A stretch of 64,000 nucleotides of DNA from an uncultured Bacteroidales bacterium. Its GTDB lineage: Bacteria > Bacteroidota > Bacteroidia > Bacteroidales > P3. The DNA is taken from NCBI GenBank assembly GCA_910578275.1, contig CAJTPR010000005.1:109030-173029 (forward strand), read 5' to 3'. The position numbers and the translations under genes are program-made. Below, in pieces: positions 2,586 through 64,000 of the stretch. The first letter of the stretch is position 1, and each line of letters starts with the position of its first letter. Below the pieces are notes generated by a model that saw only the letters and a list, made by a program, of their open reading frames with translations, ran no database searches and was not told where the DNA came from.

Positions 2586-4649
2586 GTGAAAAGGCTGCTT
2601 CCGTTCGTGGAAAGGGACGAATGGCTCTGGCCCGTAGCCGATCGCATCGAACGTCGTCATGCCGCTTATCTCGATGCCAAGCGGAGGATTGAAAAGGAAT
2701 GGGGCGGTTTGTACGAATTCGCTTCCGCGCATCTTTATTTCGGATTGCATTATCACCAAGATACCGATACCTGGACTTTCCGGGAATGGCTCCCTCATGC
2801 CCGTCATGTATTCCTGACAGGGGATTTCAACGGCTGGGACCGGACTTCGCACGCGCTTGCTCCCTTGGAGGACGGTGTCTGGGAAATAAGGATACCTGGC
2901 GCTTCGGCAAAGGGGCTTGGTCACGGTTCGCGCTACAAGACCTACGTGCAGGATTGTGACGGGAACTGGCGGATGCGGCTTCCCGCTTATACTTTTTATG
3001 CCTTGCAAGACCAGACCGGCAAGGATTTTTCCGCTCTCGTATGGCGGCCTGAAAAGGCGTTTCGCTGGTCGGAGACGGGGGAAGAAGTTCGTCCCCGGGC
3101 CGATTTTTCGAAGCAAACGCCGTTGATTTACGAGGCTCACGTAGGCATGGCCCAGGAAAAGGAGGGGGTCGGAACCTACGCCGGGTTCACGAGGAACATA
3201 TTGCCTCGTATCAAGGATGCGGGCTACAACGTCGTCCAGCTTATGGGAATCGCCGAACATCCCTATTACGGAAGTTTCGGCTATCATGTGTCCAATTTCT
3301 TTGCGCCGTCTTCACGTTTCGGTACGCCCGACGAATTGAAAGGACTGGTGAAGACCGCGCACGAGATGGGACTTTTCGTGGTCATGGACGTCGTCCACGC
3401 GCATTTCGTGGCAAACATCGAGGAAGGACTGAACCGTCTGGACGGGAGCGACGACCTGTACAGTTACGGCGGCAGGGCGGGAACGCACCCTTATTGGGGT
3501 TCGCGCATGTTCAACTTCGGCCGTGACGAGGTAAGGCGTTTCCTGTTGTCGAACCTGCGTTATTGGTTGGAGGAATTCCATTTCGACGGATTCCGCTTCG
3601 ACGGCGTCACCGCCATGATTTACTTTCATCGCGGCTATGTGGACCATTTCGGCACGTATGCCAACTATTTCGGTGCGGAAGTAGATGAAAACGCGCTGAT
3701 TCATATTTCCTTGGCCAATGATTTGATCAGGGAGGCGTGTCCCGGGACGGGCTTGAGCATCGCCGAGGAAGTGAGCGGAATGCCGGGCATCACCGTGCCT
3801 ACCGGGGAAGGAGGTTTGGGTTTCGACTATCGTCTTTCGATGGGGATTCCCGATTTCTGGATCAAGCTCGTCAAGGAATTCAGGGACGAGGATTGGGTCA
3901 TGGGCGAACTTTGGCGGACGGTGACCGACAGGCTTGTGAACGTGCCGCAGATAGCCTATTGCGAAAGCCACGACCAGGCTTTGGTAGGCGACCAGACCTT
4001 GGCTTTCCGTCTGATGGGGGCTGAAATGTACACACGGATGTCGGTGGACTCGTCAAGCCCTGTCGTGGAAAGGGGAATGGCGTTGTTAAAGATGATTCGC
4101 CTGTTCAGCCTCTTTGCCGGAGCCGAGGGTGGAGGATACCTGAATTTCATGGGCAACGAGTTCGGTCATCCCGAGTGGATAGATTTTCCGCGGCCGGGCA
4201 ACGGACAATCCTATCGGTACGCCCGCCGTCAATGGAGCCTTGCGGACAACCCGCGATTGCGCTACAAGTTCCTGGCTGCTTTCGACAAGGCCATGCTGTG
4301 TTTGGCCCGAACCCTCGACTTGCGGTGTTGCCCTCCGGCAAGGCTGTTGTCGATCGACGAGGAAAACAAGACCTTGGCTTTCGGTCTGGACGGAACGCAC
4401 CTGTTCGTCTTCAACTGGCACGTCGATCGCAGCATCCCTGATTATGAGGTTCCCGTGGAGATTCCCGGCAAATACCGTTTGGTCTTGTGCAGCGATTCGG
4501 CTTGTTTCGGAGGTTTTTCGCGTGTGGACGAAGATGCCTTTTTCTTTACCCGTGACGACGCTTCGGGCAAGCCGCGTCTTTCGGTTTACAATGTGAACAG
4601 GGCTGCCCAGGTATTTGAGCGGGTGCGGGAGCAGGTCACCGAAGGGTGA
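2586..4649 (+). CDS. glgB: 1,4-alpha-glucan branching enzyme (GH13)
   Basis: In-frame GTG at 2586 gives (M)KRLLPFVERDEWLWPVADRIERRH..., followed by GDFNGWD, HPYYGSFGYHVSNFFA, FDGFRFDGVT and ESHDQALVGD, which are GH13 catalytic-region motifs. The 5' part of the track ORF (1809-2585) overlaps lepA and is not coding. Confidence 0.85.
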   Translation: MKRLLPFVERDEWLWPVADRIERRHAAYLDAKRRIEKEWGGLYEFASAHLYFGLHYHQDTDTWTFREWLPHARHVFLTGDFNGWDRTSHALAPLEDGVWEIRIPGASAKGLGHGSRYKTYVQDCDGNWRMRLPAYTFYALQDQTGKDFSALVWRPEKAFRWSETGEEVRPRADFSKQTPLIYEAHVGMAQEKEGVGTYAGFTRNILPRIKDAGYNVVQLMGIAEHPYYGSFGYHVSNFFAPSSRFGTPDELKGLVKTAHEMGLFVVMDVVHAHFVANIEEGLNRLDGSDDLYSYGGRAGTHPYWGSRMFNFGRDEVRRFLLSNLRYWLEEFHFDGFRFDGVTAMIYFHRGYVDHFGTYANYFGAEVDENALIHISLANDLIREACPGTGLSIAEEVSGMPGITVPTGEGGLGFDYRLSMGIPDFWIKLVKEFRDEDWVMGELWRTVTDRLVNVPQIAYCESHDQALVGDQTLAFRLMGAEMYTRMSVDSSSPVVERGMALLKMIRLFSLFAGAEGGGYLNFMGNEFGHPEWIDFPRPGNGQSYRYARRQWSLADNPRLRYKFLAAFDKAMLCLARTLDLRCCPPARLLSIDEENKTLAFGLDGTHLFVFNWHVDRSIPDYEVPVEIPGKYRLVLCSDSACFGGFSRVDEDAFFFTRDDASGKPRLSVYNVNRAAQVFERVREQVTEG

Positions 4650-10917: not shown

Positions 10918-12861
10918 ATGAGCAAGTTAGATTCCAAAGTTCCATCCGGGCCTTTGGCTCAGAAATGGACCAAATACAAGGCAGAACAGCATTTGGTCAA
11001 TCCCGCCAACAAGCGCAAGTTGGACGTGATCGTGGTGGGAACCGGCCTGGCAGGAGCCTCGGCGGCCGCCTCGTTGGGCGCGTTGGGTTTCAACGTCAAG
11101 ATTTTCTGTATTTCCGACAGTCCGCGCCGGGCGCATTCCATCGCCGCCCAGGGCGGTATCAATGCGGCCAAGAACTATCAGAACGACGGGGACAGCATAT
11201 ACAGGCTTTTTTACGATACCATCAAGGGGGGAGACTATCGTGCCCGTGAAGCGAACGTGTATCGTCTGGCCGAAGTGAGCAACGACATCATCGACCAATG
11301 CGTGGCCCAGGGCGTGCCTTTCGCCCGCGACTATGCCGGCTACCTCGACAACCGCTCTTTCGGCGGAGCCCAGGTTTCGCGCACGTTCTACGCCCGCGGT
11401 CAGACCGGGCAGCAGTTGCTTATCGGTGCCTATGGCGCCTTGAGCAACGAAATAGCCAAGGGTAGCGTGAAACTCTATGCCCGTCGCGAGATGATGGACG
11501 TGGTGGTCAAGGACGGACGTGCCTGCGGTATCATTTGCCGTAATATCGTCAACGGGGCCATCGAACGTTATTCGGCCCATGCCGTATTGCTTTGCACGGG
11601 TGGCTACGGAAACGTGTACTTCCTCAGCACCAACGCCATGAACAGCAACGGCAGCGCGGCTTGGAAAGCCTACAAGAAAGGCGCGTTTTTCGCCAATCCT
11701 TGCTTCACGCAGATACATCCCACCTGTATTCCCGTCCATGGCGATTACCAGAGCAAGCTCACGCTCATGAGCGAAAGTTTGCGTAACGACGGCCGTATCT
11801 GGGTTCCCAAGGAAAAAAGCGATGTGGAAAAACTCCGCAAGGGCGAGATCCGCCCCGTGGACATCCCCGAAGAAAAGCGCGACTATTATCTGGAACGTCG
11901 TTACCCGGCTTTCGGCAACCTCGTTCCGCGCGACGTGGCCTCCCGTGCCGCCAAGGAACGTTGCGACGCCGGTTTCGGTGTGAACGAGACGGGACTGGCC
12001 GTATTCCTCGACTTCAAGAGCGCCATCGAACGGTTGGGCAAGAAGAAAATCGAGGAACGCTACGGCAATCTCTTCCAGATGTACCAGAAGATTACCGACC
12101 AGAATCCTTATGAAACGCCGATGATGATCTATCCGGCGGTCCACTACACGATGGGCGGCCTTTGGGTGGATTACGAATTGCAGACCACGCTTCCGGGCTT
12201 GTTCGCCTTGGGCGAGGCCAACTTCTCCGACCACGGAGCGAACCGCCTGGGGGCTTCGGCCTTGATGCAGGGACTTTCCGACGGATATTTCGTCATCCCT
12301 TATACGTTGCAGAACGAACTTTCCTCGCATATTTCCGACGGTCCGGTTTCCACCGAATCGCCCGAGTTCGAACAGACGGAAAAGGAAGTGAAGGAACGAA
12401 TCAACCATTTGTGCAACATCAACGGAAAGACTTCGCCCGACACGTTCCACAAACGTCTGGGACACATCATGTGGGAAGGCGTGGGCATGGGGCGTACCGC
12501 CAAGAGCCTGCAATGGGCCATCGATGAAATCAAGGCCTTGCGTGCCGAGTTCTGGCGCGACTTGAAGGTGGTGGGCGCGGCCAACGAGATGAATCCTGAA
12601 CTGGAAAAGGCCTTGCGTCTGGCCGATTTCCTGGAATTGGGCGAACTCATGGCCAAGGACGCCTTGTTGCGCGAGGAGTCCTGCGGCGGCCATTTCCGCG
12701 AAGAACACCAGACTCCCGAAGGCGAAGCCAAGCGTGACGACGAGAAATTCATGCATGTTTCGGCTTGGGAATACAAGGGCGGGGAGGCCGAACCCGAACG
12801 CCACGTCGAACCCTTGGAATATGAAAACATCAAGGTGGCGGTTCGCAATTACAAAAACTAA
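10918..12861 (+). CDS. sdhA: Succinate dehydrogenase/fumarate reductase flavoprotein subunit
   Basis: 647 aa. FAD-binding [33 protein letters not shown] and the typical C-terminal domain. Confidence 0.95.
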
Positions 12862-12873
12862 ACAAGAAAAGAG

Positions 12874-13611
12874 ATGAACTTTACATTGAAAATATGGCGA
12901 CAGAGCGGTCCCAAGGCGAAAGGTCGTTTTGAAACCTATCCGATAAGCAATATTTCGTCCGATTGCTCGTTCTTGGAAATGCTGGATATATTGAACGAGT
13001 CGTTGGTGGCCGAAGGCAAGGAACCCGTTTGCTTCGACCACGACTGCCGCGAGGGTATTTGCGGCATGTGCAGTTTGTATATCAACGGTCATCCGCATGG
13101 TCCCGACAGCCAGATCACCACTTGCCAGTTGCATATGCGCAAGTTCAAGGATGGCGATACCATTTACATTGAACCGTGGCGCAGCGCGGCATTCCCCGTC
13201 ATCAAGGACCTTACCGTGGATCGCCAGGCGTTCGACAAGATCATTCAGGCGGGCGGTTTCATTTCCGCCACCACGGGGGGCGTTCCCGACGGCAATGCCA
13301 TTCCGGTACGCAAGAAAGACGCCGACATTTCGATGGACGCGGCGGCTTGTATCGGATGCGGGGCTTGCGTGGCGGCTTGCAAGAACGCCAGCGCGATGTT
13401 GTTCGTTTCGGCCAAGGTGTCGCATCTGGCGCACTTGCCCCAAGGCAAGGTGGAAGCCGCCGAAAGGGTGAAGAAGATGATTGCCAAGATGGACGAACTC
13501 GGTTTCGGCAACTGCACGAATACGGGCGCTTGCGAGGCCGAGTGTCCCAAAGGCATCAAGATCCTGCATATCGCCAAGCTGAACCGCGAATTCATCAAGG
13601 CTTCGTTCTAA
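12874..13611 (+). CDS. sdhB: Succinate dehydrogenase/fumarate reductase iron-sulfur subunit
   Basis: 245 aa with CREGICGMC and [11 protein letters not shown] ... [12 protein letters not shown] cluster ligand motifs. Confidence 0.95.
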
Positions 13612-13667
13612 GGAGACAAGACCAGGCTTTCCGTACAGGAGCCCGGCACACGGACCTTTCTTTGAAA

Positions 13668-13700
13668 GGGCGGAAGCGCATGCGCTTCCGCCCTTTTTTT
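13668..13700 (+). terminator. Rho-independent terminator after sdhB
   Basis: Perfect 12-bp stem GGGCGGAAGCGC/GCGCTTCCGCCC followed by T7. Confidence 0.85.
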
Positions 13701-13712
13701 GTGTGAAAGCGT

Positions 13713-13720
13713 TATCTTTG
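13713..13720 (+). promoter_or_regulatory. -7 promoter box (TATCTTTG) upstream of pheT
   Basis: Perfect TAnnTTTG within the recurrent TTATCTTTGCC motif, 108 nt before the pheT ATG. Confidence 0.4.
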
Positions 13721-13827
13721 CCGTTCGTACGCCTTTTGCTGTACAACCGGCAGGCCGGGTCGCGCTTGGCGCGCCGTAGGGCCTGGTTCCGCGCGGAAAG
13801 TCCGGGGCGAAATATTTCAACAGGAAA

Positions 13828-16290
13828 ATGAAAGTAGCATACAGTTGGCTTAAGCAATACGCCGATTTCGATTTGAACGTGGATGAGGTTTCACGCCTCC
13901 TTACCGATTGCGGACTGGAGATAGATGCCGTGGAAGAAGTGGAAAGTATCCGGGGCGGATTGAAAGGTGTCGTGACCGGAAAGGTGCTTACGTGCGAACC
14001 GCATCCCGATTCCGATCATTTGCATGTCACCACCGTGGATACGGGAGAATCCGAGCCGCTTCCCATCGTGTGCGGGGCGGCCAACGTGGCGGCGGGCCAG
14101 AAGGTGATCGTGGCCACGGTAGGCGCGGTGTTGTACGACGGGGAAGAGTGTTTCACGATCAAAAAGGCCAAGTTGCGCGGCTGTCCGTCTTGCGGCATGA
14201 TTTGCGCGGAAGACGAGATAGGCGTGGGAAAGAGTCATGACGGGATCATGGTCTTGCCGGAAGATACGCCCGTGGGCATGCCCGCCGCCGAGTATTTCAA
14301 TCTTCAGAGCGAGACGGTCTTTGAAATAGGGCTCACTCCCAACCGTTCCGATGCCACTTCGCATATCGGCGTGGCGCGTGACTTGGCCGCGCTTGAAACC
14401 ATCCGGAACAATCATCCCGTCAAGCTTGCATATCCTTCGGTGGAGGCATTCGAGGAAGGAACGGGATCTTGCGTGGACGTGGAGGTGCTCGATAAGGTCG
14501 GTTGCCCCCGGTATGGCGGGCTTTGCATTAAGGACGTCCGGGTCGGACCTTCCCCCGAATGGTTGCAGAAAAGGCTTTTGAGCGTGGGGCTTCGTCCTGT
14601 CAACAACGTGGTGGACGTGACCAATTTCGTGCTGATGGAGACCGGTCAGCCCATGCATGCTTTCGACATGGCCAAGATAAAGGGGCGCAAGATCGTGGTC
14701 CGTCCTGCCAAGGAAGGGGAAACGATGGTGACGTTGGACGGTGTGGAACGCAAATTGAGCGCGCAAAACCTCATGATTTGCAATGAAAGCGAACCGATGT
14801 GCATCGCGGGCGTCTTCGGTGGCTTGGACGCGGGCGTGAGCCTGACGACGACCGAAGTGTTCCTAGAAAGCGCGTATTTCAATCCTGTCAGCATACGCAA
14901 GACGGCGCGCGAGCACGGACTCAACACCGACGCCTCGTTCCGTTACGAGCGCGGGGCCGATCCCGATATTTGCATCTATGCGCTCAAGCGGGCGGCATTG
15001 TTGTTGGCGGAAGTGGCGGGCGCCCGGGTGGCGAGCGGCATCATCGATCGTTATCCCGAACCGATAGTAAGGCCGCAAGTGGAATTCACGCTGGAATACC
15101 TGGATCGTTTGATAGGGCAGCCCATGGAGGCCGCCGAGGTGAAACGGGTTCTGGAAGCCTTGGAAATGCAGGTGGAAATGCAATCCGGAGCCACGGCCCG
15201 GGAGACGGTTTACAAGGTGAGGGTTCCGCTCAACAAGACCGACGTGACGCGCCCTGCCGACGTGGCCGAAGAGTTCTTGCGCATCTACGGATACAACCGT
15301 GTCGATTCGGGTAACCGGCTCTCGTTCGGAATGAGGGAAGAAAAGAGCGCCGAAAACGAACGGGTGGTGACACATGTTTCGGAATTCTTGAGCCACAACG
15401 GTTTCGATGAAATCATGAACAATTCGCTTTGTTCGGAAAATTATGTGGAATGGTTCGGCTTGCAGGACGTGGTGAGGATGATGAATCCGCTGAGCAAGGA
15501 AATGAGCGTCATGCGTCCCGATCTCCTGTTCGGCGGGCTTTCGAGCATCATGTTCAACTTGCACCACAAGCAGGGGAACTTGCGTTTCTACGAGTTCGGA
15601 CGCACCTATTCCGCCCTGTCAGGTGCAAGCTCCTCGGCGCCGGTGACGGAGCGTTTCAGGGAAGAAAACCATCTGGGCTTGTGGTTGTGCGGCAACGACC
15701 ATGACGAACTTTGGCAGCAAGCCCCCAAGCCGTTCGATTTCTACGCGCTCAAGTCGTATGTGGAAAAAGTTTGCCGCCTTTTGCGGATCGATACGGCTAG
15801 AAGCCGCTGCACGGAACATCAAAGTCCTTGTTTCGCCTATGGCTTGCAGTTGGAACTGGCCGGAAAACCGGCTGTGAAGTTCGGCGAAGTCCTGCCGTCC
15901 GTATGCAGTCGTTTCGATATCAAGGTCCCCGTATTCTATGCCGATTTCGATTGGGACGCGGTGTTGCGGGCGATGCCTGGAAAAGCGCCCAAGTACAAGG
16001 AAGTGAACCGTTTTCCGGAAGTTCGCCGCGACTTGGCGCTTCTGGTGGACAAGACCGTCAAGTTCTCCCGGATAGAACAAGTGGCGCGCAAGAGTGAAAA
16101 AAGCCTGTTGAAGGAAGTTTCCCTCTTTGACGTCTACGAAGGCAAGAACCTGCCCGAAGGCAAGAAATCGTATGCGGTCAGCTTTATCTTGCAGGAAGAA
16201 GGCAAGACCCTTGCCGACAAGCAGATCGAAAAGACGATGGACAGGATTTCCACGGCCTTGCAGGACGAATTGGGTTGTTCGCTGCGATAA
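13828..16290 (+). CDS. pheT: Phenylalanine--tRNA ligase beta subunit
   Basis: 820 aa. N-terminus MKVAYSWLKQYADFDLNVDEVSRLLTDCGLEID, tRNA-binding domain, B3/4 and B5 regions, and the C-terminal FDVYEGKNLPEGKKSYA anticodon-binding-like domain. Confidence 0.95.
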   Translation: MKVAYSWLKQYADFDLNVDEVSRLLTDCGLEIDAVEEVESIRGGLKGVVTGKVLTCEPHPDSDHLHVTTVDTGESEPLPIVCGAANVAAGQKVIVATVGAVLYDGEECFTIKKAKLRGCPSCGMICAEDEIGVGKSHDGIMVLPEDTPVGMPAAEYFNLQSETVFEIGLTPNRSDATSHIGVARDLAALETIRNNHPVKLAYPSVEAFEEGTGSCVDVEVLDKVGCPRYGGLCIKDVRVGPSPEWLQKRLLSVGLRPVNNVVDVTNFVLMETGQPMHAFDMAKIKGRKIVVRPAKEGETMVTLDGVERKLSAQNLMICNESEPMCIAGVFGGLDAGVSLTTTEVFLESAYFNPVSIRKTAREHGLNTDASFRYERGADPDICIYALKRAALLLAEVAGARVASGIIDRYPEPIVRPQVEFTLEYLDRLIGQPMEAAEVKRVLEALEMQVEMQSGATARETVYKVRVPLNKTDVTRPADVAEEFLRIYGYNRVDSGNRLSFGMREEKSAENERVVTHVSEFLSHNGFDEIMNNSLCSENYVEWFGLQDVVRMMNPLSKEMSVMRPDLLFGGLSSIMFNLHHKQGNLRFYEFGRTYSALSGASSSAPVTERFREENHLGLWLCGNDHDELWQQAPKPFDFYALKSYVEKVCRLLRIDTARSRCTEHQSPCFAYGLQLELAGKPAVKFGEVLPSVCSRFDIKVPVFYADFDWDAVLRAMPGKAPKYKEVNRFPEVRRDLALLVDKTVKFSRIEQVARKSEKSLLKEVSLFDVYEGKNLPEGKKSYAVSFILQEEGKTLADKQIEKTMDRISTALQDELGCSLR

Positions 16291-16337
16291 ATATGCGAGC
16301 GCGTCGGGTTGCGCGTCCTTGATTCTTTCCCGTGAAC

Positions 16338-16370
16338 GGGCGAGGCGGCCGGGTTTCCGGTCGCCTTTTT
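16338..16370 (+). terminator. Probable intrinsic terminator after pheT
   Basis: GC-rich bulged hairpin (GGCGA..CCGG GTTT CCGG TCGCC) followed by T5. Confidence 0.45.
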
Positions 16371-16426
16371 CATGCGGGTCCATATCCTCGGTCCGGCAAG
16401 ATGTCGGGCGTAGTCAAGATGACTTG

Positions 16427-16456
16427 TTCACCCCGGCAAAGCCCATAAATCCTTGG
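16427..16456 (+). repeat. Degenerate partial copy of the 78-bp repeat unit, upstream of the riboswitch
   Basis: TTCACCCCGGCAAAGCCCATAAATCCTTGG versus the unit TTCGCCTCGGCAAAGTCCAGGAATCCTTGG; about 25 of 30 positions identical by eye. Confidence 0.5.
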
Positions 16457-16537
16457 TTTGTGTATTAGGATTTTTTAAGTCGTTGTTTTTCAGTCAGATT
16501 TTTGATATTTGAAAATTTGCGTACTTTCGTGGCGGCT

Positions 16538-16708
16538 TTTTGGTCAAGGCGAAAAGGTAAGGCCTTGATAATTAGGAACACGGTGTGAATCCGTGACAGT
16601 ACCCTCTACTGTGATTCTCGTTGAAGCCGGGCAATAGGTCACTGTGTCGCATGAAAACCGGCATGGGAAGGCGTCCGGGGGAGAGATAAGTCAGGAGACT
16701 AGCCAAAG
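16538..16708 (+). promoter_or_regulatory. Cobalamin (B12) riboswitch aptamer
   Basis: Conserved core AGGAACACGGTGTGAATCCGTGACAGTACCC..ACTGT, then GGGAAGGC, and the B12 box AAGTCAGGAGACTAGCC at 16688-16704. A near-consensus -7 box TACTTTCG sits at 16522-16529. The next gene downstream is a TonB-dependent receptor. Confidence 0.85.
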
Positions 16709-16818
16709 CGAGCATGGCTTTCATTCTTCCGGGGAAAGGGGGAGGAAAGCACGGAGGGACGCCGTTCTTGCGTTCCTGTTTCCGGAAATGTTCTCATAGG
16801 GTCCGAAAGTCAGTTGAG

Positions 16819-17128
16819 CTTTCATCCGACGTTTTATTCGCCTCGGCAAAGTCCAGGAATCCTTGGCCTCTGCGCTCGGCTTCAGTAAAACGTTGGCTTT
16901 CATCCGACGTTTTATTCGCCTCGGCAAAGTCCAAGAATCCTTGGCCTCTGCGCTCGGCTTCAGTAAAACGTTGGCTTTCATCCGACGTTTTATTCGCCTC
17001 GGCAAAGTCCAGGAATCCTTGGCCTCTGCGCTCGGCTTCAGTAAAACGTTGGCTTTCATCCGACGTTTTATTCGCCTCGGCAAAGTCCAAGAATCCTTGG
17101 CCTCTGCGCTCGGCTTCAGTAAAACGTT
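16819..17128. repeat. Tandem array, 4 x 78 bp, near-identical units
   Basis: The unit CTTTCATCCGACGTTTTATTCGCCTCGGCAAAGTCCAGGAATCCTTGGCCTCTGCGCTCGGCTTCAGTAAAACGTTGG starts at 16819, 16897, 16975 and 17053. Copies 1 and 3 have CCAGGAAT while copies 2 and 4 have CCAAGAAT. No unique spacers are present. Confidence 0.95.
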
Positions 17129-17142
17129 CAATTTGATTCGAG

Positions 17143-19164
17143 ATGGTTGACAGGATCCTTGTCGTCGTTTTCTTTCTTGCTTGCGGCTTGCTTCCGGCAG
17201 TTCGCCTTTCGGCGCAGGAGCAGGCACCGCGCGGGGAGGATTCGGTAAGCCGGCACTACTATCTGGACGAAGTGGTGATTTCCGCTCCGTCGAAGGAAAT
17301 CATCCGGCCGCAGAAGTTGGACGGAAAGGTGTTGGAACGCCTCAACAGTCTTTCGGTGGCAGATGCCATCCGTTTCTTTTCCGGCGTGCAGATCAAGGAC
17401 TACGGCGGGGTGGGAGGCATCAAGACCGTCAATATACGCAGCATGGGAACCAACCAGATGGGCGTTTACTACAACGGCATCCAGTTGGGCAACGCCCAGA
17501 ACGGGCAAATAGACTTGGGCAAGTTCTCGTTGGAAAACATAGACGAGATCGCGCTCTACAACGGACAGAAAAGCGATATATTCCAAAGCGCGCGCGAGTT
17601 CGGTTCCTCCGGCAGTATTTATCTCAACAATCGTCGTCCCGGATTCGAGGAAGGCAGGAACTTTCATCTCCGGGCGGCCATGAAGACCGGATCGTTCGCG
17701 TTGGTGAACCCTTCCTTGCTCATGGAATACAAGGTGGGCGAGAAGTTCAACGTGTCGATGAACGCCGAGGTGCTCAACTCCGATGGCAAGTACAAGTTCC
17801 GCTATCGCAGGCGCACGCCTTCGGGCGACCTGGCTTACGACACGACGGCGGTGCGTCAAAACGGCGACATCAACGCCGTGCGCGTGGAAGCGGGGCTGCA
17901 ACACTATTATTCCAACACGGGATGCTGGAAGTTCCAGGCCTATCACTACAATTCCGAACGCGGCGTGCCGGGCGCGATCGTCAACAATGTCTGGCGGCGC
18001 GGGGAACGGCTTTGGGACCGCAACAGTTTCGTGCAGGCTTCTTTCCAGGACGAGTTTTTCGACCGCTGGCAGTTGCGCCTCAACGCCAAGTACGCTTACG
18101 ACTACACGCATTACGTGAACAACGACGACAAGCTGGTTCGCTCCGACAACGTCTATGTGCAACGCGAGGCATACGCTTCGTTGGCCAACAAGCTGGAGGT
18201 TTTCCGCTGGTGGGACGTTTCGCTGGCCTACGACTTCCAGTGGAACGGCATGGAGGAATACATGGACGTGAGCCGTTTTTCGCACTACTTGGCGGCGGCC
18301 ACGGCGATGAACCTTTTCGACCATGTGAAAATACAGGCCTCCGTGCTGGGTACTTTCGTCAACGAGGAGGCTTCACGCCGCCACAAGGCTCCCGACAAAC
18401 GCAAGGTCACGCCCGGCTTGTTCCTTTCCTACCAGCCTTTCAGGCGCATAGGATTGGTCGTCAGCGCGTTCTACAAGCAAGCCTATCGTTATCCCACGTT
18501 CAACGACCTTTACTATACCGACATGGGCAACGCCTCCTTGGAACCGGAACTGGCCATCCAGCACGATGTGGGTGTCGGTTATTCCCTGGAACGTAAAAAA
18601 GGCGTGTTCCGTCAATTCGAGATCAAGGCGGACTATTATTACAACCGCGTAAAGGACAAGATCGTGGCCTATCCCAAAGGGCAACAGTTCCGTTGGACGA
18701 TGCTCAATCTGGGCATGGTGAAAATCAACGGCGTGGATGTGTCTTCGCGTTTCATGCTGCAATTCCCGCATCAATGGTCGTTGACAGGCACGTTGCAGTA
18801 TACGTATCAGACGGCCGTGGACGTTACCGATCCCGCCGACACCTATTACGGCGACCAGATTCCCTACATTCCTTGGCATAGCGGTTCGGTGACGGGCATG
18901 CTGGCATGGCGCAACTATGCGCTCAACTACGGCTTCATCTATGTCGGGAAACGTTACAATCAGCAGGAGAACATAGTGTATAACTACACACAGCCGTGGT
19001 ACACGCACGATCTTTCGCTCTCGGGGGCGTGGAAAATAAGGAAAAAGGTGCTCTTGAAAGCCACGTTGGAGGTGAACAACCTGCTTTCGCAGGACTACGA
19101 CGTGATACTCAATTACCCGATGCCCGGGCGGAATTACCGTATCTCGCTGGTTGTTGAATATTGA
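17143..19164 (+). CDS. btuB: TonB-dependent outer-membrane receptor, BtuB-like (riboswitch-linked)
   Basis: 673 aa. Signal peptide, plug domain (LDEVVISA...LNSLSVADAIRFFSGVQIKDYGGVGGIKTVNIRSMG), beta-barrel body and a terminal aromatic residue (...RISLVVEY). Its position behind a cobalamin riboswitch supports a corrinoid receptor role. Confidence 0.8.
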   Translation: MVDRILVVVFFLACGLLPAVRLSAQEQAPRGEDSVSRHYYLDEVVISAPSKEIIRPQKLDGKVLERLNSLSVADAIRFFSGVQIKDYGGVGGIKTVNIRSMGTNQMGVYYNGIQLGNAQNGQIDLGKFSLENIDEIALYNGQKSDIFQSAREFGSSGSIYLNNRRPGFEEGRNFHLRAAMKTGSFALVNPSLLMEYKVGEKFNVSMNAEVLNSDGKYKFRYRRRTPSGDLAYDTTAVRQNGDINAVRVEAGLQHYYSNTGCWKFQAYHYNSERGVPGAIVNNVWRRGERLWDRNSFVQASFQDEFFDRWQLRLNAKYAYDYTHYVNNDDKLVRSDNVYVQREAYASLANKLEVFRWWDVSLAYDFQWNGMEEYMDVSRFSHYLAAATAMNLFDHVKIQASVLGTFVNEEASRRHKAPDKRKVTPGLFLSYQPFRRIGLVVSAFYKQAYRYPTFNDLYYTDMGNASLEPELAIQHDVGVGYSLERKKGVFRQFEIKADYYYNRVKDKIVAYPKGQQFRWTMLNLGMVKINGVDVSSRFMLQFPHQWSLTGTLQYTYQTAVDVTDPADTYYGDQIPYIPWHSGSVTGMLAWRNYALNYGFIYVGKRYNQQENIVYNYTQPWYTHDLSLSGAWKIRKKVLLKATLEVNNLLSQDYDVILNYPMPGRNYRISLVVEY

Positions 19165-44531: not shown

Positions 44532-44726
44532 ATGCCAAAGTTAAAGACCAAATCGGCTGCAAAGAAAAGGTTTTCTTTCACCGGAACAGGCAAGATTAAA
44601 CGTAAACACGCTTTCAAGAGTCACATCTTGACAAAAAAAAGCACCAAGCGTAAACGTAATCTGACCTATTCGACCATCGTTCACCAAGCCAACGAGGCGG
44701 CGGTGCGCGACATGTTGAATCTGTAG
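44532..44726 (+). CDS. rpmI: 50S ribosomal protein L35
   Basis: 64 aa [36 protein letters not shown]... Confidence 0.95.
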
Positions 44727-44852
44727 GCTTTCGCCTCCTGTAGGGCGTTCCGGGAATCCGCCTTGAACCAATTCCCGCAAAACAAATTATTAATTGATTA
44801 TGAGCACAAAGTTTCCTGAAAGAACGGAACGCTCATACAAAAAACGAAAAAG

Positions 44853-45197
44853 ATGCCAAGATCAGTCAATGTGGTTGCCGCCAGGGCACGCAGGAAAAAA
44901 ATGCTGAAATTGACCCGTGGTCAATTCGGACGCAGGAAAAACGTGTGGACAGTCGCCAAGAACTCCCTTGAAAAAGGTTTGTTGTATGCCTATCGCGACC
45001 GGAAAGCCAAGAAAAGAAGTTTCCGCAACCTTTGGATCGTACGTATCAACGCCGGTATCCGTCCCTACGGAATGTCGTATTCCGCGTTCATGGGCAAGCT
45101 TCATCAGAAGAACATCGACTTGAACCGCAAGGTTCTGGCCGATTTGGCGATGAATCACCCGGAAGCCTTCAAGGCTGTCGTGGATAGCGTAAAATAA
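44853..45197 (+). CDS. rplT: 50S ribosomal protein L20
   Basis: 114 aa [30 protein letters not shown]...RKVLADLA. Confidence 0.95.
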
Positions 45198-45202
45198 ACG
45201 GC

Positions 45203-45246
45203 AAGCCGAGCGCAGAGCCCAAGTTTGCTTGGACTATGCCGAGGCG
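45203..45246. repeat. Single dispersed copy (opposite orientation) of the core of the 78-bp repeat unit
   Basis: AAGCCGAGCGCAGAGCCCAAGTTTGCTTGGACTATGCCGAGGCG matches the reverse complement of the 16.8-17.1 kb unit at 38-39 of 44 positions (my hand alignment). It lies directly after the rplT stop. Confidence 0.8.
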
Positions 45247-45305
45247 CCGCGTTATTGCACACGAAGTGCGAAATAGAGTCGTTAACACAATAAATATCAG
45301 AAATC

Positions 45306-45659
45306 ATGAGCAAACCGGCATTAATGCAATTTGTTGACACGCTCACAAAAAGCAACGAGCTGCCTGCTTTCAAGGCGGGCGACACCATAACCGTAAGTTA
45401 CAAGATCAGGGAAGGTAACAAGGAACGTATCCAGCAGTTCCAGGGCGTTGTCCTGCAACGTTCGGGCAGCGGTACCACGGCTACCTTCACCGTAAGGAAA
45501 ATGTCGAGCAACATCGGTGTGGAAAGGATTTTTCCCGTGAACTCTCCCTTTATCGAAAAAGTGGAAGTGAACAAACGCGGGATTGTCCGTCGCGCCCGTA
45601 TTTTCTACCTGCGTAACCTTACCGGCAAGAAGGCTCGTATCAAAGAACGTCGTTACTAG
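45306..45659 (+). CDS. rplS: 50S ribosomal protein L19
   Basis: 117 aa ...[33 protein letters not shown]... Confidence 0.95.
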
Positions 45660-45687
45660 GCATACATTCTGCTTAGTAGATCTGCTG

Positions 45688-45727
45688 AAAGGCTGCATGG
45701 CGCGAATACGTGTCAGGCAGCCTTTTT
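45688..45727 (+). terminator. Probable intrinsic terminator after rplS
   Basis: AAAGGCTGC ... GCAGCCTTT stem (9 bp, 20-nt loop) running into T5. Confidence 0.55.
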
Positions 45728-63329: not shown

Positions 63330-64000
63330 AACCCAGAAAGCTGCGGTCAAACCGGCTGCCAAGCCCGCCGCAAAGAAGACTGCCGCCAAGCCGGCCGTCA
63401 AGAAATCCGTTGCAGCCAAACCGGCTGCCAAGAAGGCTGCTGCCAAACCGGCCGCCAAGAAAACGACGGCCAAGCCCGCTGTCCGGAAGGTGGCTGAAAC
63501 GAAGGCCAAGGCTGCCGCCAAGACGGCGGCCAGGAAGATCACGGTGGCTACGGTCAAGAAAGTCGTGGCCGGTTCGGCCGCCATGGCGATCGTGGCAGGG
63601 AAAAAGCTCGAAAAGGATTTGAAAGCCGAAGCCATGAAGACGGTGAAGAAAGCCGTGAGCACGGGCAAGAAGGCCGAGAAGACGTTGAAGGCCGAAGCCG
63701 GCAAGACGGTGAAGAAAGCCGTGCGTGCGGGCAAGAAGGCCGAGAAGACGTTGAAGGCCGAAGCCGGCAAGACGGTGAAGAAAGCCGTGCGTGCGGGCAA
63801 GAAGGCCGAGAAGACGTTGAAGACCGAAGCCAGGAAAACGGTGAAGAAAGCCGTGAGTACGGGTAAGAAAGTCGAAAAGACGTTGAAGGCCGAAGCCAGG
63901 AAAACGGTGAAGAAAGCCGTGAGCGCGGGCAAGAAAGCGGAAAAGACCCTCGCCCCGAAAGTGGCCAAGGTGGTGAAAAAGGCAAAAAAGACGGTTGCCG
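63322..64000 (+). CDS. Histone H1-like Lys/Ala-rich repetitive protein; 3' end lies beyond the window
   Basis: Not in the ORF track because it has no stop in the window. My translation from the ATG at 63322 gives MAKTQKAAVKPAAKPAAKKTAAKPAVKK..., followed by 22-aa KTVKKAV..GKKAEKTLKAEAG repeats, and is open to base 64000. It overlaps the udk stop by 8 nt. Confidence 0.7.
   Translation, partial: MAKTQKAAVKPAAKPAAKKTAAKPAVKKSVAAKPAAKKAAAKPAAKKTTAKPAVRKVAETKAKAAAKTAARKITVATVKKVVAGSAAMAIVAGKKLEKDLKAEAMKTVKKAVSTGKKAEKTLKAEAGKTVKKAVRAGKKAEKTLKAEAGKTVKKAVRAGKKAEKTLKTEARKTVKKAVSTGKKVEKTLKAEARKTVKKAVSAGKKAEKTLAPKVAKVVKKAKKTVA
63604..63966 (+). repeat. In-frame 66-bp (22-codon) tandem repeats, about 5.5 copies, within the histone-like gene
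   Basis: Full units start at 63637, 63703, 63769, 63835 and 63901. Units 2 and 3 are nearly identical at the DNA level. Confidence 0.85.

Follow-up and report, generated by a model that had tools for sequence, protein, structure and literature searches.

We analyzed a 64,000-nt stretch (hereafter the window) of an uncultured Bacteroidales bacterium (GenBank assembly GCA_910578275.1, contig CAJTPR010000005.1, positions 109,030 to 173,029), in which a cobalamin riboswitch is separated from the start codon of the btuB-like receptor gene that follows it by four near-identical 78-nt tandem repeat units. The unit is a member of a dispersed family of intergenic hairpin repeats of uncultured Bacteroidales. 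It is absent from the orthologous leaders of related species, its insertion site is resolved to the single base, and different assemblies carry different alleles of the array. We consider that an element akin to a repetitive extragenic palindrome (REP) or a MITE (miniature inverted-repeat transposable element) inserted here and was expanded by slippage into a variable-number tandem repeat (VNTR), and that it is probably a noncoding passenger in the btuB leader. The locus is best filed with the bacterial hairpin repeats, as a REP/MITE-type intergenic repeat turned into a VNTR resembling the MIRUs (mycobacterial interspersed repetitive units), in a position that is unusual and informative.

Tandem Repeats Finder reported one array, at 16813-17128 (score 609), with a period of 78 and 4.0 copies that match at 98% and contain no indels, and the aptamer upstream of it matched the full RF00174 model of Rfam well above the gathering score (94 versus 31.5 bits). 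A first-pass annotation of this stretch, made from the letters alone, had placed four head-to-tail 78-nt units between a cobalamin aptamer and a receptor start, and both searches bear it out; its aptamer was also correct, but the end that it gave, at about 16708, fell 13 nt short of the Rfam model. Allowing up to 3 mismatches, the consensus unit found no further site in the window and none in shuffled sequences (0 expected). Units 1 and 3 are of a G type (CCAGGAAT) and units 2 and 4 of an A type (CCAAGAAT), an alternation from which we conclude, as had been proposed, that the array is a duplicated 156-nt dimer.

A decayed copy of the same repeat subfamily lies between the terminator of the upstream pheT gene and the promoter region of the riboswitch. 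It is identical to the unit at 25 of 30 bases over 16427-16456 and at 16 of the next 30, and the AATC loop that is specific to the array is present in it too (16427-16487). A degenerate 23-mer pattern matched this copy and the four units and nothing else (0 matches expected by chance), and the strain contigs L007 and L039 also hold the copy. Together, the 25/30 match, the shared loop, and the specificity of the pattern show that the partial unit first noted at 16427-16456 is real; to the covariance model of the family, it was a weak match (16403-16491, 14.1 bits, E value of 0.35).

We compared the leader with eight orthologous loci from other species, whose BtuB proteins are 74 to 84% identical. 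A cobalamin aptamer lies upstream of the gene in all eight, and a search with filters off found the element in none of their riboswitch-btuB leaders. In the closest relative (L010), the empty site reads GGAAGTCAATTTGGATT, with AAGTCA running straight into ATTTG; the filled site in the window reads GAAAGTCA-insert-ATTTGATTCGAGATG. The insertion point, between AAGTCA and ATTTG, is 12 nt 5' of the ATG and ∼11 nt 3' of a conserved GGG motif, and the sole possible target duplication is TCA. In the window, the insertion has left unaltered the aptamer, the GGG motif, and the 12 nt that directly precede the ATG. Of the two readings offered in the first-pass annotation, the one in which a selfish or structural element colonized the leader is thus supported, given the dispersed family, the absence from eight orthologues, the reconstructable empty site, and the variable copy number.

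The insertion lies outside the probable sensing part of the expression platform. In the established model of cobalamin riboswitches, a kissing loop between L5 and L13 joins the aptamer to the expression platform. The related leaders have in common a CATAGGGTC(N)AAAG motif ∼75 nt past the aptamer, which in the window reads CATAGGGTCCGAAAG (kept in L011, L013, L031, and L032) and is the last conserved element of the platform before the insertion. Its GGG can pair with a C-rich loop, ACCCU at 16601-16605, the candidate L5 (AGGGU at 16798-16802 being the partner), and L010 differs on both sides, with ACCCA in L5 and TGGGT in the downstream motif. By analogy, the GGG motif is probably the L13 kissing-loop partner, with one compensatory event behind the pairing. 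A P13 stem was considered and dropped because predictions disagreed between species. The first-pass annotation had also assumed that the platform normally abuts the start codon and had set the element within it. Both points must be revised for this clade: the distance from the Rfam aptamer end to the called start is 104 to 232 nt in the eight orthologous loci (421 nt in the window), and the element lies downstream of the candidate L13 motif rather than in the sensing part of the platform.

The insertion appears to have raised the spacing between the GGG motif and the ATG from ∼23 nt to 107 to 341 nt, with 341 nt in the window. Such a separation could weaken a translational switch, or it could matter little if control is transcriptional. 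Two species, represented by L013 (∼2860-2960) and L031, have an insertion of ∼85 nt at this point of the leader, where it separates the CATAGGGTC motif from the start codon; the R1 covariance model described below found no match to it. Since an unrelated insertion occurs at the same place in two species, separation at this point seems to be tolerated.

Contigs encoding an identical or at least 99% identical receptor carry the array in several allelic forms, all copy numbers being taken from assemblies that are apparently short read, judging by contig names. Six Logan contigs (L039 to L044; 98.5 to 99.6% identical to the window) have one unit of the A type, the inserted block being 84 nt long in L039, and L007 (99.95% identical) has two units, G-A. 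At least two A-type units occur in L009 and L038, contigs that end inside the array. Four units (G-A-G-A) are found in the window and in L008, which is 100% identical to the window over 9.8 kb and may be the same assembly. The locus therefore behaves as a VNTR, with a period of 78 and unit numbers of 1, 2, at least 2, or 4 among contigs 98.5 to 100% identical to the window. The recent expansion that had been proposed from the G/A dimer is supported by the alleles A, A-A (at least two units), G-A, and G-A-G-A.

These alleles suggest an order of events. In this species, a single 84-nt copy would have entered the btuB leader between AAGTCA and ATTTG. The same GTTSG pentamer stands at the start and end of the element in many members of the family, and this identity offers a short direct repeat for head-to-tail duplication by slippage or unequal recombination. 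One copy may thus have become two (A-A), an A-to-G change would have given G-A, and duplication of the dimer would have given G-A-G-A, the outcome being a VNTR whose RNA is predicted to fold as self-contained hairpins.

The unit is a long imperfect palindrome whose outer arms, CCGACGTTTTA and TAAAACGTTGG, close the core CGCCTCGGCAAAGTCCAAG-AATC-CTTGGCCTCTGCGCTCGGCTT; its predicted fold has a free energy of −24.4 kcal/mol (z score of −3.0). Family members share a conserved core, CTCGGCA(A/T)AG...CTCTGCGCTCGGC, and the hairpin is ∼70 nt long, with 20 modeled pairs in three helices. We built a covariance model, R1, from 17 copies. Two stretches, GCTCGGCATAG in the 5' half and CTCTGCRCTCGCC in the 3' half, do not vary among copies; the outer stem and apical hairpin do, with compensating changes. 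In an alignment of 29 copies, paired cells make up 94%, and both sides have changed in 13 of the 20 pairs; shuffled and slid controls fall far short of these values, although the alignment had itself been fitted to the model.

The core pattern occurred in 6 loci in a scan of one genome per species, all in metagenome-assembled genomes (MAGs) of uncultured Bacteroidales or Bacteroidaceae, and in 16 further loci in a metagenome scan, many of them at contig ends. In those loci, R1 recovered additional, more diverged copies, several per ∼10 kb. Copies are mostly intergenic and in both orientations, often a few to 35 nt from gene ends or slightly overlapping them. Head-to-tail arrangements recur, as a dimer with a period of 77 in L002 (6055-6161) and as a pair of diverged units in L028 (∼1577-1750); L022 (7186-7493) has one inverted pair, and truncated copies keeping only the 3' half were seen in L002 (first copy) and L024 (3449-3535). 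Two IMG/VR viral contigs also carry the core motif, both on the minus strand (L035, 3532-3611; L036, 422-515), the copy in L036 lying in a region of 66% G+C directly past the stop of a 2,815-amino-acid (aa) open reading frame (ORF).

The window itself contains a solo copy that overlaps the stop codon of rplT (45197) by 14 nt, ahead of rplS (45306). Its core is reversed at 45203-45246, directly past the rplT stop and antisense to both genes. It matched the array core as an inverted repeat at 86 to 89% and R1 at 80 bits, with a predicted fold of −35 kcal/mol (z score of −4.0). Rfam 15, searched at E values up to 10, had no match overlapping the array or this copy; within 16300-17300, it returned the aptamer and two weak matches upstream of it, and within 44700-45700, three weak matches outside the copy. 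Bacteroidales-1 RNA, which lies downstream of L20 genes, was rejected for the rplT copy on the same result. The family is thus unmatched in Rfam and was not found in the literature searches made. By its conserved loops and compensated stems, it is a candidate structured motif.

Several known classes resemble the family in part. Like REPs and bacterial interspersed mosaic elements, its members are dispersed imperfect palindromes, mostly intergenic, multicopy, near gene ends, and in both orientations, with a compensated hairpin. Tagged REPs are 20 to 40 bp long with stems of 8 to 9 bp and loops of 4 to 5 nt, are defined by a stem of 5 to 13 bp, a loop of 2 to 20 nt, and an unpaired GTAG or CGTC at one end, and form predominantly head-to-head or tail-to-tail dimers, with head-to-tail ones negligible; some families are linked to REP-associated tyrosine transposases (RAYTs) (PMC3733652). 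By that definition, size, tag, and dimer type are all unfit here: the hairpin is ∼70 nt long with three helices and conserved internal loops, there is no unpaired GTAG or CGTC (GACG in the family is base-paired within the outer stem), and the arrays in the window, L002, and L028 are head to tail, with the single inverted pair in L022. A MITE combines terminal inverted repeats, a target-site duplication, and a related autonomous insertion sequence; the unit has the inverted termini CCGACGTTTTA and TAAAACGTTGG and the possible TCA duplication relative to the empty site of L010.

In BrickBuilt, a MITE of Porphyromonas gingivalis with an internal minisatellite, bricks of 23 nt are framed by leader and tail subunits, and the element has promoter activity (PMC4596501). 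It is likewise a strain-variable Bacteroidales intergenic repeat with a tandem array that may influence neighboring genes; here, in contrast, the whole 78-nt hairpin element repeats, and the array has no exact TAnnTTTG box. The locus shares with MIRUs and VNTRs direct tandem units of 40 to 100 bp in transcribed intergenic regions near start codons, strain-polymorphic copy number, an ORF through the units, and empty homologous sites in relatives. MIRU ORFs overlap the downstream start with a −4-nt spacing (PMC3184786, PMC12548453). The ORF through the array instead stops 6 nt before the ATG, phylum and sequence differ, the ORF arrangement is not family-wide in the Bacteroidales repeat, and the dimer in L002 has a period of 77. 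Integron attC sites have RYYYAAC and GTTRRRY core sites at the hairpin base, with cassettes between sites. An attC array was rejected because such core sites are no feature of the family: the unit in the window matches 6 of 7 bases per core, and L022 and L003 are unmatched. Copies are moreover dispersed singly in both orientations, and the spacer between units is 7 nt.

Some observations weigh against an inert transposed passenger. For transposition itself, no transposase or donor copy was identified (a parent insertion sequence was not sought), and the target duplication is at most TCA. The copy numbers rest on apparently short-read assemblies, which can collapse or break tandem repeats. The invariant internal loops and covarying stems, found also in the two viral contigs, suggest from sequence that the hairpin is selected for some activity. 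Finally, an ORF runs through the array, open in the one-, two-, and four-copy alleles, starting in P1 and stopping 6 nt before the btuB ATG; by a rough estimate, the chance of an ORF spanning the distance from aptamer to start is a few percent, which keeps a translated leader in play.

Assembly error could account for the copy number if the genome in fact had a single unit or another number and the four copies were a misresolved de Bruijn cycle. L009, L037, and L038 break inside or beside the array, and the sole other four-copy contig is the possibly redundant L008. However, the regular G/A alternation and the A-A arrangement in other samples show that two or more distinct units do lie side by side, and one-unit and two-unit contigs cross the site unbroken in independent samples, the one-copy contigs doing so without the branch expected from a second unit. 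The element is real even in its one-copy form, and we regard an artifactual array as very improbable.

Selection on the hairpin would be explained if it were a functional module, an undescribed structured RNA or DNA motif such as a site for protein binding or recombination, or an RNA that is processed or cleaves itself. As tandem copies came and went between the B12 sensor and the btuB start codon, the array would then act as a contingency locus, which may reset B12-receptor expression or its B12 sensitivity within gut populations, or the in-frame leader ORF would have been recruited to carry the riboswitch signal across the array. We consider this quite improbable, the compensated pairing and conserved loops described above being the evidence that speaks for it.

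The ORF deserves separate treatment because the other reading in the first-pass annotation was that the riboswitch gates an upstream ORF (uORF) to which btuB is translationally coupled. The frame itself was as described, 140 codons from 16714 to 17136 through all four units and in the frame of btuB, and because 78 nt equals 26 codons, it is open whatever the number of units in the alleles found. In the corresponding mechanism, B12 binding would close P1, the closing helix of the aptamer, and hide the ATG at 16714, which lies in its 3' strand. Without B12, ribosomes would move through the 140 codons, unfolding the hairpins of the array and shielding the long leader, and would then stop 6 nt short of the btuB ATG and reinitiate, so that the ORF relays the decision of the switch across the array. 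There is precedent for such an arrangement. In Mycobacterium tuberculosis, the B12 riboswitch of ppe2 controls a translated uORF in the leader that is needed for PPE2 expression and acts by termination-reinitiation, as shown by experiment (PMC11260477), and MIRU repeats contain ORFs that show coupling with the gene located where the repeat has inserted (PMC12548453). As at ppe2, a cobalamin riboswitch is here followed by a long leader ORF ending just before the regulated gene; the ORF here differs in being largely made by a repeat insertion, in its noncoding codon usage, and in being predicted from sequence.

A number of observations speak against translation. Codon scores in the ORF frame were −0.27 for the unit and −0.24 for the part before the array, about three standard deviations below genes (+0.38 ± 0.21), with off-frame windows at −0.57. 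Pfam had no match for this ORF or for a 168-aa minus-strand ORF, and a protein-coding repeat was rejected on these grounds. Three of six frames are fully open across the array and a single stop, at its left boundary, interrupts a fourth, so the caution in the first-pass annotation that four of six frames are open was about right. The ATG at the 16714 position is missing in four of the five related leaders compared (L032 has one), the gene tables of L007, L008, and L039 to L044 list nothing between pheT and btuB, and those other copies of the family that precede genes lack a consistent open frame that runs up to the start codon, one dimer even having the period of 77. The strains offer no sequence divergence usable for a selection test. 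The proposed coupling is thus not supported by codon score, start codon, dimer period, or family-wide arrangement, and we consider the translated leader unlikely but conceivable. The ORF is most likely incidental and noncoding, to judge from these sequence features; coding or coupling to btuB is unsupported.

Reading frames in these leaders have a further consequence. Many BtuB orthologues are annotated 30 to 60 residues too long (homologues have 700 to 731 aa; the start in L011 is called at 3001 versus ∼3088). Because no stop interrupts the riboswitch leader in the frame of the gene, gene callers start inside the expression platform.

The array might instead tune expression by copy number, if the units, or the junction hairpins with the UUUUAUU that follows, acted as pause or terminator, RNA-processing, or protein-binding sites; BtuB levels would then depend on the units gained or lost, which would give heritable, reversible variation of a surface receptor. 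Closely related assemblies do differ in copy number (1, 2, at least 2, or 4 units), family copies often lie a few to 35 nt from gene ends or overlap them slightly, and the conserved internal-loop nucleotides and covarying stems suggest a recognized structure. The junction between units is predicted to form a 13-bp hairpin (−14.6 kcal/mol, z score of −3.6) whose 3' arm enters a U-rich tract. An intrinsic terminator consists of a G+C-rich stem with a T run immediately after it. A terminator scan found no such site in 16813-17130 on either strand, a T run follows only about half of the family copies, which occur in both orientations relative to genes, and the copy-number differences may partly be assembly effects. 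Tandem terminators were rejected on this basis, and a copy-number-dependent attenuator, conceivable from the modeled junction hairpin, is unsupported. Predicted accessibility of the start region was 0.35 to 0.47 for 0 to 4 copies, and structural coupling of the array to the start was likewise rejected, since accessibility changes little with copy number. All told, tuning by copy number is unlikely.

Promoters within the insertion were also considered. A motif scan found no exact Bacteroidetes −7 box (TAnnTTTG) in or after the array. A second promoter after the array was rejected because there is only a one-mismatch box, TCAATTTG at 17128, which lacks a −33 TTTG and from which a leaderless mRNA would result. 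An invertible promoter between the outer inverted repeats was rejected as well, as the 49-nt core has no TAnnTTTG and a literature check found no invertase-site consensus. Just 5' of the aptamer, a box with one mismatch to the consensus (AAAATTTG) is a candidate promoter, identified by motif scan rather than by a mapped transcription start. In the region 5' of the aptamer, an exact box is present at four related loci (L010, L011, L013, and L014); in L011, it sits 5' of a tRNA gene that intervenes before the aptamer.

If the repeat is a noncoding passenger, as we favor, this riboswitch leader tolerates 84 to 318 nt of hairpins between the last conserved platform motif and the start codon, with an insertion site readable to the base, and the birth of a minisatellite is visible in bacteria as it passes from one to two to four copies. 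Such tolerance, to which the unrelated ∼85-nt insertions in two other species also point, is relevant to the question of whether the B12 switches of these Bacteroidales control transcription or translation. The locus also breaks apparently short-read assemblies, and gene callers are misled into starting btuB within the leader.

Table 1. Features of the btuB leader and related elements in the 64,000-nt window
Feature	Position(s)	Strand	Remarks
Inserted block	16813..17130	+	Four head-to-tail units plus terminal GTTCA; borders from the element-free L010 leader
Array units	16813-16891 (G), 16892-16969 (A), 16970-17047 (G), 17048-17125 (A)	+	
140-codon ORF through the array	ATG 16714..stop ending 17136	+	In btuB frame; 6 nt, then btuB ATG at 17143
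Cobalamin riboswitch aptamer	16522..16721	+	RF00174, 94 bits, E value of 4e-22, model positions 1-189 of 189
Conserved motif CATAGGGTCCGAAAG	16795..16809	+	Candidate L13 partner of L5; kept in L011, L013, L031, L032
Candidate Bacteroidetes-type −7 promoter box AAAATTTG	16512..16519	+	One mismatch to TAnnTTTG; just 5' of the aptamer
Decayed copy, same repeat subfamily	16427..16487	+	Between pheT terminator and riboswitch promoter region
Solo copy	45184..45274	-	Overlaps rplT stop (45197) by 14 nt, ahead of rplS (45306)
TonB-dependent receptor (btuB-like)	17143..19164	+	Pfam Plug domain
pheT (phenylalanyl-tRNA synthetase beta chain)	13828..16290	+	Upstream neighbor; Pfam B3_4, tRNA_synthFbeta, FDX-ACB, tRNA_bind, B5

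The nearest named relatives are “Candidatus Aphodosoma” and MAGs of Lentimicrobiaceae and Paludibacteraceae, and close homologues of the receptor carry the name outer membrane cobalamin receptor. Genes with DUF5074 and Por_Secre_tail domains lie 3' of the receptor gene, and on the 3' side of pheT, a hairpin followed by a T run can be read at ∼16344-16372. The upstream neighbor of the btuB locus differs in most species examined, which suggests that the riboswitch-btuB block has moved repeatedly. In one related species (L011 and L012), a tRNA gene (2682-2754) lies ∼30 nt upstream of the cobalamin aptamer.

Elsewhere in the window, upstream of pheT, a 976-aa ORF on the minus strand (10927-13857) had no Pfam match at E values up to 0.01. 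Near the end of the window, repeats at 63342-63947 would read as Lys/Ala-rich if translated, in a frame that comes from no ORF call, and a 66-nt tandem repeat of ∼4 copies (63595-63947) apparently lies within a gene running off the window end.

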